A stretch of DNA of 28,627 nt from Chloroflexia bacterium (GCA_039920445.1 JBDSDS010000242.1:1-28627); one strand, 5' to 3'. Positions 921 to 4,722 are shown, counted from the stretch's first letter. Numbers and translations are program-made. Notes: generated from the letters alone by a model not told the origin.

Positions 921-987
921 GAATTATGAGTTTCGAATTATGAATTATAAAGAAACCGGTCAATTCATAATTCGAAACTCATAATTC
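921..987. repeat. GAATTAY-heptamer palindromic element (26-bp perfect inverted repeat, 15-nt loop)
   Basis: GAATTATGAGTTTCGAATTATGAATT (921-946) and its exact reverse complement (962-987). The right arm contains the TGA stop of the DnaE-like gene. Confidence 0.95.
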
Positions 988-3900
988 GATGACAGCGAGG
1001 GCCGCCGGGCCGAAGAGGTGGGCGATCTCCGACTCCAGGCTATGGCTGTACTGGACGCCATAAGGGAGTTGAGCCGATGTGACGGAGCCTGTATCTGGGC
1101 TGTAAGGGATGCGAAGGCTAACCGTATCAGCGCCGGGGTGCTGGCTTAACAGGCGCTTGAGGGTATTCATGCCGTCGATAGCCGCGTTATCGTTATCAGC
1201 CTCAGGGAGGGTGATTATAAGACTGTAGGTAGGACTGCTAATCTCTTTGGTCGCAACAGCATTAGACCCTCCTAACGGGGGAGTAGGTTGAGAGCCATTG
1301 CCCGCGTGTAATGGGGTCGTGTGGGGCGCTACTACCGAAGCCACGATTTCCCCTTCCGAGGTAGGACCAGGCTCAGTCGATTTCCCGGCTCCCTTGCGTA
1401 GCGCCCCTCTTGCATGTGCTTTGACCTTGATACTAAATCCTTCTTCAACGGCCTCGGCATAGAATGGGGCTATCTGTTCACACAATAGATATATATCGTC
1501 GTTTTCGTGCGTGCTGACGCGACCTGTCACTATGACCAGGCTATTCTCAGTCCATTGCTCCCTATACCTCTTATAATTGGGCGGGAAGGCTATTAACTCG
1601 ATGCTACCTTCTACATCTTCGATCCATGCTACAGACATAGTATTAGGAAGTGCGGCCCCAGGGTCGTCAGGAAGCTGGCTGTTGCCGTTCCCGGCATCGC
1701 CGGTCGCTCCCTTTATGAATGACGGAGAAGTAAGCAGCCCGACCAGAGAGACGCTTTGTCCAATATGCTTCGGCCCAACCTGAGTAGTGCTCAACAGGCG
1801 CGCTTTGAGGTCACCTGAGCTTTCGAGGGCGCGGCGCAGATTGTCTATCTCAGGTGCGAGCGTGAACCACATACCCAGGTTCTTCATCTCCCAGCTACGC
1901 TGTAAGTAACGCTCCCGTGGGGTCGGCCCTTCTTCATTTTGGATTTCGGGTACCCGCTTGCGGGTGTTTGGATTTTGGATTTCATTGTGGTCGGTGGTGA
2001 ACATATCGATTGGGCCGCTCAACCCGCTATGCTTATGCTCGATAATGACCGGTAGGACTTCGAGCAGACCGTACCTGCTATGCTCGATACCTCCCAGGCG
2101 GTCACACCCTCCGGCGCGGAGGAGCGTTTCGATATGCGCCTGTGTAAGGCCAACCCGCATGGCAAGACGCACAAGCTCTTCGAAATTCGAGAACCCACCG
2201 GCAGGCCTCACACCCAGGAACCTATCCGCCACATCCATATTCCAACCTGGCAGCCGGGCCAGACACCACATGATAGCCCAGCCTGTCCCGTTGCGCTCCA
2301 GCCCGAACTTTGAATGAGATCGGTCAACATCCGGTGGGCGCACGCTTATATCGAGCCGTTGCGCTTCTTCGACCAGAGGCAGCAATTGATCGCGCGCCCC
2401 ACGCTCCCAGGTCGCATCAAGTGCCCCGGCTAATAGTGTTGCAGGGTGATGGGCCTTGAGCATAGCCGACCACAGGGCAACCCTTCCCCATGCCTGCGCC
2501 GAAGAGCGCGAGATCAGAGCAGATGAGGCGGCTGACAGCGCAGCCCATAGACCCTCCGCGCTATCCGTATCGATGCCTGATCCCTGGCAGGTGGCAGTAA
2601 AGCGTGCTCGCGCATCATCACTTCTTTCTCGCAGGTCGGAGCGCATAGTCGCTATGTCGTCCGGCTCCTGTTCGGCGATTGAGGATAACAGCATATCAAG
2701 CTGGTCTTTATAGATAAGTAGGCCAGCCGTATCACTTGCTGCTTCTTCCCAGGCGGTAATGCCTTCTTTCCCAGGCGATATTCCACCCGTAAGCGAGCGC
2801 GCCACCAGAAGCGCCATCGATTCAGGCGTGATCTCCCCTTGCAGGCTTTTCAGCGCCTCATGAGATATATAGGGAATGCCGGCAAGCCATCCGTCCGTAA
2901 TAACCTGCGCCGTCTGTTCTGTGATTTGAGGATATTTTGTAAGGTCGATATTGTCCACCGAGAAGCCAGAGGTGGGGTAGCGCGCTGCAAGGGATAGCCC
3001 GGCCTCTAGCGCGGATAGAATATAGGATGGCTGTATAGACAGGGCGGGATAACCAAGCTTACAAAGCGCCTCCTCACACCACGGCACCCAGGCTTTTCCT
3101 GATTGGCCTGATTGGTATGACATGACCGGCAACCAATCGCCTATCACAGAATCGGCGAACATCGAACGGGGAGCCGTAAGGAGCGTGCTATAGTCAGGCT
3201 TGAAGGTAACAGGCGCGCCCTCCAGCGAACAGGCCAGCGCTGCTATTCTGCTTAGCTTTTGGTCCTGCTCCTCTGCCTCACGTTCCCTCAGCAGCCCCCA
3301 TTGCCCAACTCCTGCTAGTTCCCGCACACCCTCCTTCGGCATACCAAGTACGGTTGCGACAGCAGAGATGGCGGCATTAGGCGTAATGTCAGTTGCACAA
3401 GCCGCATAAGCGGTACGACTAGGACCATATTCCTTAGAAAGAGCCGACACTAAGGCTTCACGCTTGCTTGCCGGGACTTCTATACCAGGGAGGGGGACAC
3501 TCTGTGAAGAGTTAGCGAGCCATCGTGGCGCGGCATAGGGCAACGGGTCGAGTGAGAACAGCCCGAAGGCATAGGCAAGCAGGGAGCCCTCGGCCATACC
3601 TAGAGCAGCCCCCAATGGGACAGTAGTGACTTGTGTACGCTCTGACGTTTGTATGCCCTGAGATGCCAGCTCCCGCAGAGAAGCCAGCGCCAGCCACGAT
3701 CCAACTCTACCACTTTGTTCGCATACAGTTACTTCAGCCTGCAAACGCTCTTTCGCCGCCTGCGATAATTCGTCGACTCCTGCTATGTCCGACAGCTTTC
3801 GCTCGGCAACCTGCGCGAGGGAGATCGCATCTTCCCCTTGTGCATGCTCCGTGCCGATCGTCAAGCGGTTTGCGCCTGAGCAAATCTCGACAATACGGGC

Positions 3901-4722
3901 CACATTCTCGACAGCTTCAGGCCACTCTGCGAATAGCGCTGCTGCCTCGTCGGGAGGGCGTAACCAGTGACCAGTGACCAGTGACCAGTGACCAGTAAGT
4001 GATGAGCGATGAGTGGTGAGCGGGGTGGGTGTGCCTGGACGAGGCCACCCGGCTTTCTGACGTGCCAGGCGAAGGGCCTCATACGAGAGAGCATCTGCCG
4101 CATCGAGGTATCTAGCCGTCGGTAGCGCCACAGGCGGTAATCCCATCTCTTCCGCTGCCCGCACCACCTGTCCAGCGAGCATCCCATCCCCCGACCTGCC
4201 TGAGTGTGGTACGCCCAGAAACGCTCTTTCGCCAAAGCTCTCACGCAGGAGGTTGCCTATCTCGTTTCTTTTTTTAGGCATGAGGCTCATCAGGGGAGCA
4301 AGTGCGCCCGCCTCATCGCCGCCGAGCAGAATCACTACCAGGCCGTTTGTATGAGCAATGAGCGTATCAACAGGCACGCCCGCTTCCACACCAGGCCAGC
4401 CTCCATAGGCTAAAGAGCAGACCCTACCGAGGTTCGATAGTCCGTCATGATCGCACGCGAATAGGAGGGCGGGCTGCGCCAGTGGTGAGCTCTTACTGCT
4501 GCCTGGGAGGAGCAGGTCAATCTCCACGCCGAACACCGGCGTAAGGCCATTGCTGCGGGCAGCCGTCTCGAACCGGGGGAACCCAGCCAGTGGAGCGCGG
4601 TCGGCTATACCTATGGCTTTATACCCGAACGCGGAGGCTTGGCGGCACCACTTTTCGGGAGAGGCTGGGCCGCCGCCCAGGCTAAAATGCGTGTGGATAT
4701 GCAGGTACGTAAAGAGACTCAT
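979..4722 (-). CDS. dnaE: DNA polymerase III alpha subunit (DnaE)-like protein, full length, predicted catalytically inactive paralog
   Basis: 1247-aa ORF collinear with DnaE: PHP (YLHIHTHFSL, GIADR, PVFGVE, EWPEAVENVARIVEIC), palm/fingers remnants (LLIYKDQL, LKAHHP, VRPPDVDRS), HhH (LARLPGW...F), OB fold (IEDVEGSIELIAFP...LVIVTGRV) and C-terminal domain (LKRLLSQHPG). PDIDxDF reads PGIEVP and KxDFLG reads ALSIQP. Confidence 0.88.
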   Translation of the reverse strand: MSLFTYLHIHTHFSLGGGPASPEKWCRQASAFGYKAIGIADRAPLAGFPRFETAARSNGLTPVFGVEIDLLLPGSSKSSPLAQPALLFACDHDGLSNLGRVCSLAYGGWPGVEAGVPVDTLIAHTNGLVVILLGGDEAGALAPLMSLMPKKRNEIGNLLRESFGERAFLGVPHSGRSGDGMLAGQVVRAAEEMGLPPVALPTARYLDAADALSYEALRLARQKAGWPRPGTPTPLTTHRSSLTGHWSLVTGHWLRPPDEAAALFAEWPEAVENVARIVEICSGANRLTIGTEHAQGEDAISLAQVAERKLSDIAGVDELSQAAKERLQAEVTVCEQSGRVGSWLALASLRELASQGIQTSERTQVTTVPLGAALGMAEGSLLAYAFGLFSLDPLPYAAPRWLANSSQSVPLPGIEVPASKREALVSALSKEYGPSRTAYAACATDITPNAAISAVATVLGMPKEGVRELAGVGQWGLLREREAEEQDQKLSRIAALACSLEGAPVTFKPDYSTLLTAPRSMFADSVIGDWLPVMSYQSGQSGKAWVPWCEEALCKLGYPALSIQPSYILSALEAGLSLAARYPTSGFSVDNIDLTKYPQITEQTAQVITDGWLAGIPYISHEALKSLQGEITPESMALLVARSLTGGISPGKEGITAWEEAASDTAGLLIYKDQLDMLLSSIAEQEPDDIATMRSDLRERSDDARARFTATCQGSGIDTDSAEGLWAALSAASSALISRSSAQAWGRVALWSAMLKAHHPATLLAGALDATWERGARDQLLPLVEEAQRLDISVRPPDVDRSHSKFGLERNGTGWAIMWCLARLPGWNMDVADRFLGVRPAGGFSNFEELVRLAMRVGLTQAHIETLLRAGGCDRLGGIEHSRYGLLEVLPVIIEHKHSGLSGPIDMFTTDHNEIQNPNTRKRVPEIQNEEGPTPRERYLQRSWEMKNLGMWFTLAPEIDNLRRALESSGDLKARLLSTTQVGPKHIGQSVSLVGLLTSPSFIKGATGDAGNGNSQLPDDPGAALPNTMSVAWIEDVEGSIELIAFPPNYKRYREQWTENSLVIVTGRVSTHENDDIYLLCEQIAPFYAEAVEEGFSIKVKAHARGALRKGAGKSTEPGPTSEGEIVASVVAPHTTPLHAGNGSQPTPPLGGSNAVATKEISSPTYSLIITLPEADNDNAAIDGMNTLKRLLSQHPGADTVSLRIPYSPDTGSVTSAQLPYGVQYSHSLESEIAHLFGPAALAVIEL
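1936..1983. repeat. In-frame TTTTGGA heptamer insertion with a small hairpin inside the DnaE-like gene
   Basis: ATTTTGGATTTC occurs at 1936-1947 and 1972-1983, flanking the hairpin ACCCGC-TT-GCGGGT (1952-1965). It encodes NEIQNPNTRKRVPEIQNE. Confidence 0.75.
3963..4021. repeat. In-frame tandem heptamer arrays (ACCAGTG x4 plus one partial copy; GATGAGY-like x3) inside the PHP domain
   Basis: ACCAGTG at 3963, 3970, 3977 and 3984, ACCAGTA at 3991, then GATGAGC/GATGAGT/GGTGAGC at 4001-4021. It encodes LTTHRSSLTGHWSLVTGHW. Confidence 0.9.

Follow-up and report, generated by a model that had tools for sequence, protein, structure and literature searches.

A predicted non-catalytic DnaE homolog maintained by purifying selection in uncultured soil Chloroflexia

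A DnaE-like protein with replaced catalytic residues

The stretch of DNA analyzed here, hereafter the window, is 28,627 nucleotides long (GCA_039920445.1 JBDSDS010000242.1:1-28627) and comes from a metagenome-assembled genome (MAG) of a Chloroflexia bacterium. Its minus strand encodes P0001, a protein of 1,247 amino acids related to DnaE, the alpha subunit of bacterial DNA polymerase III (Pol III). Alignments show P0001 to be a predicted non-catalytic descendant of the replicative polymerase DnaE1, or 'pseudo-alpha', in which the metal-binding aspartates, the deoxynucleoside triphosphate (dNTP)-binding residues, and the PHP nuclease site are predicted to be lost. Purifying selection maintains the gene, for brevity called the dead gene below, throughout one genus of uncultured soil Chloroflexia. 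The gene and the parts of its product are located as follows.

979..4722, minus strand: dead DnaE1-derived protein P0001 (predicted), intact single open reading frame (ORF) of 1,247 codons plus stop
3853..4722, minus strand: PHP domain, residues 1-290; three of nine metal ligands kept (H8, H10, and E67)
3583..3615, minus strand: what remains of the GS nucleotide-binding motif (GRGSxAGS), here LGAALGMAEGS (MAFFT alignment)
3472..3495, minus strand: PLPGIEVP, replacing the catalytic strand xPDIDxDF (HMMER and MAFFT)
2968..3852, minus strand: degenerate palm and thumb, residues 291-585 (alignment and model)
3028..3045, minus strand: ALSIQP in place of KxDxLG (K553 to A560, D555 to S562)
2353..2967, minus strand: degenerate fingers, residues 586-790; absent in some family members (forms of ~1,060 residues)
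2026..2352, minus strand: helix-hairpin-helix (HhH) / beta-binding domain, residues 791-899 (Pfam and alignment)
1999..2016, minus strand: position of the clamp-binding motif, GPIDMF, after the HhH, where catalytic DnaE1 has its internal QxxLF
1423..1917, minus strand: OB fold and the helices preceding it, residues 936-1100; among the most constrained parts
982..1233, minus strand: C-terminal domain (CTD), residues 1164-1247; homolog of the DnaE1 CTD and the most conserved domain of the family

Motif replacements were read from a HMMER alignment to Protein Data Bank sequences and from a MAFFT alignment to nine catalytic proteins (DnaE1 and DnaE2), and the two agreed. The catalytic aspartates of the C family of polymerases (E. 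coli D401, D403, and D555) correspond in both independent alignments to L411, G413, and S562 of P0001. E. coli PDFDVDF is aligned to PLPGIEV, with D401 at L411, D403 at G413, and D405 at E415. A first-pass annotation, made from the sequence alone, had correctly recognized that PGIEVP (3472-3489) replaces the strand of the aspartate triad but had set G413 and E415 at the positions of D401 and D403, a register shifted by two residues; at most one acidic residue survives in the palm in either register. Its other readings of this region were borne out: the ORF is uninterrupted and collinear with DnaE (Pfam and alignments), S562 of ALSIQP stands at the D555 position (MAFFT), and H8, H10, and E67 are the only PHP metal ligands left, the other six of nine being replaced (D to G17, H to R42, and DxH to T202-A-R204). 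The residues expected to bind the dNTP are likewise all replaced, namely, the GS motif, K553, and the finger motifs (FQxES to PYIS, RPGP to ARSL, and NKSH to SRSS). Across the dead family, P412, G413, E415, and P417 are invariant, and the N-terminal PHP motif YLHxHTHFSxGGGP is conserved.

Pfam detected PHP (residues 7-145), HHH_6 (residues 792-878), and OB (residues 1028-1084) domains in P0001, along with a weak DNA_pol3_alpha match (residues 302-501, 40 bits). Against the NCBIfam DnaE equivalog, P0001 scored 243.9 bits, below the curated membership cutoff of 1002 bits. An AlphaFold2 model of residues 1-1100 was obtained with a predicted local distance difference test (pLDDT) score of 84.4 and a predicted template modeling (pTM) score of 0.80. 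Foldseek matched this model to M. tuberculosis DnaE1 (7pu7, E 1.7e-47) and to the Pol III alpha subunits of Thermus aquaticus and E. coli. For 7pu7, 4iqj, 2hpi, and 5fku, E values ranged from 1.7e-47 to 1e-39 and TM scores from 0.6 to 0.75, over alignments of about 970-1200 columns at 19-20% identity. The dead CTD is homologous to the DnaE1 CTD by HHalign (probability 99.2%, E 1.2e-19), and Pfam, AlphaFold/Foldseek, and HHalign together give P0001 the domain architecture of DnaE1. Because a confident AlphaFold2 model matches Pol III alpha structures, the modeling shows that P0001 is predicted to keep the complete DnaE fold (PHP, palm, thumb, fingers, HhH, OB, and CTD). Compared with E. coli, Thermus, and M. 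tuberculosis DnaE, the protein combines a full predicted fold with a replaced triad.

Spread and constraint of the dead family

Distribution of the dead gene was analyzed at several scales. A search of 5.8 billion proteins recovered 13 full-length homologs at 40-87% identity, each with PLPG[IVL]EVP or a near variant. A family profile run against 1.84 billion cluster representatives gave 27 clusters (50% identity) above a gap in the scores, which stood at 354 bits on one side and at 334 bits and lower, the range of ordinary DnaE1, on the other. Among the carriers are 17 species-level MAGs labeled Chloroflexia or Chloroflexota. When 201 genomes of the class were sampled, every one of the 25 from the window's GTDB genus carried the dead gene, a count that takes in three unpublished genomes (G018, G042, and G141) and becomes 22/22 without them. 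The frames are open throughout this genus, at 38-87% identity between species. No dead gene was found in the other genera of the sample at E <= 1e-60, the sole extra match being one ordinary DnaE1. The match of G009 to the family profile (336 bits) was rejected as its normal DnaE1 (1240 bits to TIGR00594).

Selection on the gene was assessed from ratios of nonsynonymous to synonymous substitution rates (dN/dS, Nei-Gojobori). These were 0.29, 0.23, and 0.20 between P0001 and three relatives and 0.17-0.24 between the relatives. Ratios stayed below 0.65, not near 1, in every domain, including the CTD (0.06-0.30), the OB fold (0.13-0.22), and the second palm segment (0.12-0.21). The marks of a pseudogene, i.e., frameshifts or stops in orthologs and a dN/dS near 1, were not found. 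P0001 instead has those of a pseudo-polymerase: a kept fold, lost catalytic residues, and purifying selection. The first-pass annotation had proposed selection for a non-catalytic role, and this proposal is supported by the presence of the gene in every genome of the genus, the low dN/dS, the conservation of the substituted motifs, and an inverted pattern of constraint.

That pattern was seen by comparing identities domain by domain. P0001 is 27.5% identical to Chloroflexia DnaE1 in the HhH, 26.2% in the CTD, 25.3% in the OB fold, and 24% in the PHP domain, but only 13-15% in the thumb and second palm segment. The earlier view that the HhH, OB, and CTD are the best-preserved parts is thus supported, with the PHP domain about equal to them. 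Within the dead family, mean identity is 58% for the CTD and 52% for the OB fold and is lowest, at 36-41%, for the palm, thumb, and fingers. Chloroflexia DnaE1 has means of 56-60% for the palm, 57% for the fingers, 40% for the OB fold, and 33% for the CTD. The order of constraint is inverted in the dead family relative to Chloroflexia DnaE1, with the OB fold and CTD above the catalytic core. The finger region is missing altogether from several family members (~1,060 residues), including that of the eight-contig genome G024. At the position of the clamp motif, most of the family has Q-x-D-L-F, aligned with QxxLF or QxxMF of catalytic DnaE1. In a fold search with the OB fold plus CTD, the top match is Thermus alpha in the alpha-tau complex; the TM score is low (0.27) owing to the flexible linker, and the match is weak evidence.

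Sister families of the same order carry more degenerate dead forms, of 1,283 and about 900 residues. Pfam still detects the PHP domain in them, and the HhH too in the forms of family f3, and their OB fold and CTD are visible in alignment. In family f6 (Chloroheliales), the dead forms have about 1,000-1,075 residues and no fingers. Among these is WP_341470882.1 of Candidatus Chlorohelix allophototropha, which is annotated merely as 'PHP domain-containing protein'. P0063, the dead form of the Ca. Chlorohelix allophototropha genome G015, has a perfect clamp motif, QLSLFDL.

In maximum-likelihood (ML) trees, all dead proteins lie on one side of a long, fully supported branch. The family profile scores Chloroflexia DnaE1 at a median of 328 bits (OB 45, CTD 23) and the catalytic DnaE of the same genomes at 214 bits (OB 0, CTD 0). 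Because the tree leaves the attachment of the dead clade open, DnaE1 ancestry rests on CTD and OB homology and on these profile scores. It is the dead copy that appears to carry on the DnaE1 lineage, and the working enzyme appears to be a DnaE2 relative without a CTD.

Catalytic DnaE of the same lineages and candidate roles of the dead protein

The orthologs of P0001 in Chloroflexia also lack the aspartate triad, and a canonical catalytic dnaE, with all palm and finger motifs, is found elsewhere in the window's MAG (2.27 Mb, 58% complete).

G000:C324, L001:688-4341, minus strand: catalytic DnaE of the window's genome, on a 5.2-kb contig

Catalytic DnaEs of the genus and of genome G067 stop shortly past the OB fold, and none has a CTD. 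Those of the genus (L001 and its orthologs L024-L026 and L099) carry a PHP insertion of ~50 residues, have partly replaced PHP ligands, and end in a conserved tail, LKMHPV(V/I)IA. In ML trees, they form one clade with one f3 enzyme and with accessory DnaE copies of another Chloroflexia family, and this clade of CTD-less enzymes groups with bona fide DnaE2, not with DnaE1 (97-99 by the Shimodaira-Hasegawa-like approximate likelihood ratio test). No strong DnaE1 (TIGR00594) was found in the window's genus, in family f3, or in family f6. A strong DnaE1 with a CTD (1100-1300 bits to TIGR00594) is present in other families of the class, often plus a second copy of the CTD-less kind. Exactly one catalytic gene and one dead gene were found in each of three near-complete genomes (G024, G067, and G015). 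Standalone DnaQ-like exonucleases are present in these genomes, and their DnaX is of tau length (632 residues in the window's genome), with DnaX_C detected in Chlorohelix. In Ca. Chlorohelix allophototropha (G015:C2), the catalytic DnaE frame L097 has 961 residues and ends before the OB fold, and catalytic forms of other f6 genomes have 1,080-1,091 residues and an OB fold. No f6 catalytic form has a recognizable clamp motif at the usual position.

Recovery of the catalytic gene was incomplete. A strong catalytic match was obtained in 15/26 genomes of the genus (12/23 excluding unpublished ones), and catalytic dnaE (PF07733) was not found in 13 of 14 sister-family MAGs of f2 and f3 that are 71-91% complete (G063, G079, G090, G093, G099, G105, G111, and others). 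True absence from the sister families was considered and set aside. Fragmentation of the assemblies is the likelier cause because the closed-like G067 has a catalytic dnaE on a 1.18-Mb contig, a fragment with 76% identity lies on a contig of less than 1 kb in G138, and the copy of the window's genome sits on the 5.2-kb contig. Short-read assembly seems to break up catalytic dnaE, whereas the fast-evolving dead paralog assembles well.

The likeliest reading, to which we give about even chances, is a structural role, in which the dead protein would be a non-catalytic replisome scaffold that tethers or organizes the CTD-less catalytic DnaE. The conserved CTD of the dead protein would serve as the attachment site of tau, a clamp-loader subunit, its QxDLF-type motif would occupy the beta-clamp pocket, and its OB fold and HhH would bind DNA. 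By tethering or organizing the CTD-less enzyme, it would leave alpha divided into a catalytic and a docking protein. A broader proposal, which we hold only tentatively and consider possible but doubtful, is that in at least two Chloroflexia orders (the window's order and the Chloroheliales) the ancestral replicative DnaE1 has become a non-catalytic docking subunit that retains the modules for tau, clamp, and DNA binding, with chromosome synthesis taken over by a CTD-less, DnaE2-related DnaE. Such an arrangement might be called a 'split alpha' and would break the rule that a catalytic DnaE1 or DnaE3 is present in every bacterium.

Several observations weigh against a scaffold derived from DnaE1. 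The clamp-motif remnant PIDMF reported by the first-pass annotation does lie at 1999-2013 and at the aligned position, but, like SIDMF of the nearest relatives, it lacks the leading Q of the wider family, and a QxxMxDF-like motif in the catalytic DnaE of the genus may let that enzyme reach the clamp unaided. Within the genus, the dead protein is 43-47% identical and the catalytic DnaE 61-66%; this faster evolution of the dead protein is as compatible with an accessory part as with a core part. The ML topology places the dead proteins with the DnaE2 superclade, with a support of 0. Approximately unbiased (AU) tests reject a grouping of the dead proteins with Chloroflexia DnaE1 alone (p 0.003), and a single clade of the dead proteins and all DnaE1 has a p-AU of 0.052. 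No replisome gene adjoins the dead gene at any locus examined, no neighbor is common to the dead loci across families, and the dead gene is not linked to the catalytic dnaE, the two being on different contigs in the window's genome (in G024, they are ~737 kb apart on one contig). Among the RNA runs searched for the dead gene, none contained it.

The dead protein could instead act as a decoy or regulator that competes with the catalytic polymerase or other clients for beta, tau, or primer-template and so tunes replication or repair, perhaps under the control of the neighboring response regulator, without being a stoichiometric part of the replisome. We judge this unlikely, although it would account for the retention of the clamp-motif position, OB fold, and CTD without catalysis, and the faster evolution relative to the catalytic paralog would also agree with it. 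Of 18 loci of the genus, 15 do have a response regulator gene downstream of the dead gene, but none of the four f2 and f3 loci examined has it, no neighbor is shared across families, and the unrelated neighbors hisS and MatE are equally conserved within the genus. A decoy would also give no reason for the loss of the CTD from the catalytic DnaE of these lineages.

A role confined to damage tolerance, with the dead polymerase bridging a DnaE2-type enzyme to the clamp as an ImuB-like translesion adaptor, appears improbable. It draws on the grouping of the catalytic partner with DnaE2 and on the precedent of ImuB, itself a dead polymerase with a clamp motif that serves DnaE2 (PMC3919608, PMC12926913). 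Like ImuB, the dead protein is an inactive polymerase homolog under selection that has a clamp-binding motif position and co-occurs with a DnaE2-type enzyme. It belongs, however, to another polymerase family and fold, and whereas ImuB is encoded in a cassette with dnaE2, the dead gene is unlinked to the catalytic dnaE, with no imuA- or imuB-like genes adjoining either of them. Furthermore, no catalytic C-family polymerase other than the DnaE2-like enzyme was found in the genomes with a dead gene, so this enzyme presumably replicates the chromosome. The dead protein also has a DnaE1-type CTD, which no DnaE2 module uses (PMC3919608). P0001 itself does not fall within DnaE2. It shares an inactive PHP domain with DnaE2, which is among its top sequence matches, but it has a CTD, lacks the triad, and has none of the imuA- or imuB-like neighbors usual for dnaE2, while no DnaE2 has a CTD and all DnaE2 keep the triad (PMC3919608).

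It is also conceivable, but highly improbable, that P0001 is a cryptic enzyme, in which E415 and a PDxD/E motif on the neighboring palm strand (residues 509-512, replacing HAAG) form a new metal site for polymerization or for another nucleotidyl or phosphoryl transfer. No family member departs from D510 or E415, most have D or E at position 512, and pseudoenzymes with migrated catalytic residues are known (PMC10211241). Position 512 is nevertheless Ser in P0001 and P0003, the PDxD/E motif is not found in the f2 and f6 relatives, and the GS motif, K553, and dNTP-holding finger residues are gone, the fingers being deleted outright in several members. Finally, a decaying relic, i.e., a duplicated dnaE heading for loss whose frame is open by chance, would suit the great divergence from DnaE (244 bits; cutoff, 1002), the tolerated in-frame repeat insertions, and the faster evolution than the catalytic copy, but it is refuted, to the point of having next to no chance, by intact orthologs in 25/25 genomes at 38-87% identity between species, a dN/dS of 0.17-0.29, invariant family-specific motifs, and relatives kept across two orders.

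Scaffold-type inactive polymerase homologs occur in the Y family (ImuB), the B family (the C-terminal half of Pol epsilon), and the X family. The proposed scaffold role of P0001 has its closest analog in eukaryotic Pol epsilon, whose C-terminal half is an inactivated polymerase-exonuclease module (PMC2669801) that has lost catalysis and been kept as a structural part of replication. That module is of the B family and is fused to an active one, and its scaffold role was shown experimentally, whereas a scaffold role for P0001 is proposed from sequence and model. With DnaE1 (2hnh/5fku, 2hpi/4iqj, and 7pu7), P0001 shares the seven-domain architecture, the predicted fold, the CTD homology, the OB fold, and the clamp-motif position. 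It differs from DnaE1 in lacking the three catalytic aspartates, the GS motif, K553, the finger motifs, and six of nine PHP ligands, in scoring far below the family cutoff, and in being conserved in the OB fold and CTD rather than in the core.

According to an analysis from which sequences without an intact active site had been removed, conservation of the aspartate triad is absolute throughout the C family (PMC3919608). A 2026 survey, which left out strongly diverged sequences, reported inactive members for the Y, X, and B families and for no others (PMC12926913). The statement of the first-pass annotation that no such system had been described agrees with both studies, whose methods would filter such proteins out. 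A full-length, selected, dead DnaE exists nonetheless, and what is new here is the extension of the pseudo-polymerase concept, already known, to the C family. In the carrier lineages, the docking modules (CTD, OB fold, and clamp motif) and the catalytic center are on separate proteins. If the two proteins do cooperate, they would represent a natural dissection of the catalytic and organizing roles of alpha and also an instance of replication taken over by an accessory-type polymerase. Ca. Chlorohelix allophototropha, one of the carriers, has been cultured, which opens the idea to testing at the bench.

Neighboring genes and repeat insertions

The remaining features of the window that adjoin or interrupt the dead gene are the following.

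4732..4759, minus strand: sigma-70-like promoter match (TCCACA-16 nt-TATAAT) directly upstream of the start codon; a consensus match only
3..830, minus strand: LuxR-type response regulator (REC and GerE), downstream of the dead gene
6627..8978, plus strand: STAND-type NTPase (AAA/NB-ARC and TPR) of 783 residues with a C-terminal LuxR helix-turn-helix, ~2 kb upstream of the dead gene
3963..3997, minus strand: heptamer CACTGGT, five copies in tandem, translated in frame to SLTGHWSLVTGHW within a disordered PHP loop; not in the closest homologs
1936..1983, minus strand: palindromic repeat element of 48 nt, a hairpin between GAAATCCAAAAT direct repeats; in-frame insertion in the disordered linker after the clamp motif

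The genes neighboring the dead gene in the window encode the response regulator, a DUF5946 protein, a methyltransferase, the STAND/LuxR regulator, HisS, and a MatE protein, with the DUF5946 and methyltransferase genes placed between the STAND-type NTPase gene and the dead gene. Adjacency of the response regulator probably reflects synteny rather than a functional link. Operon clues to function were set aside, as the response regulator is missing from the four sister-family loci and no neighbor is found across families.

P0001 tolerates in-frame insertions of repeat DNA in its disordered loops. Repeats of a similar VTG/VSG type as that in the PHP loop are present at the C-terminal end of the neighboring response regulator and in P0062, a dead DnaE of a sister family. 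The 48-nt palindromic element looks like a small mobile repeat. Its peptide IQNxNTRKRVPEIQN is also present in the homolog P0002, ~600 residues further upstream, and related copies of the element lie on contigs C369 and C126 of the window's genome.

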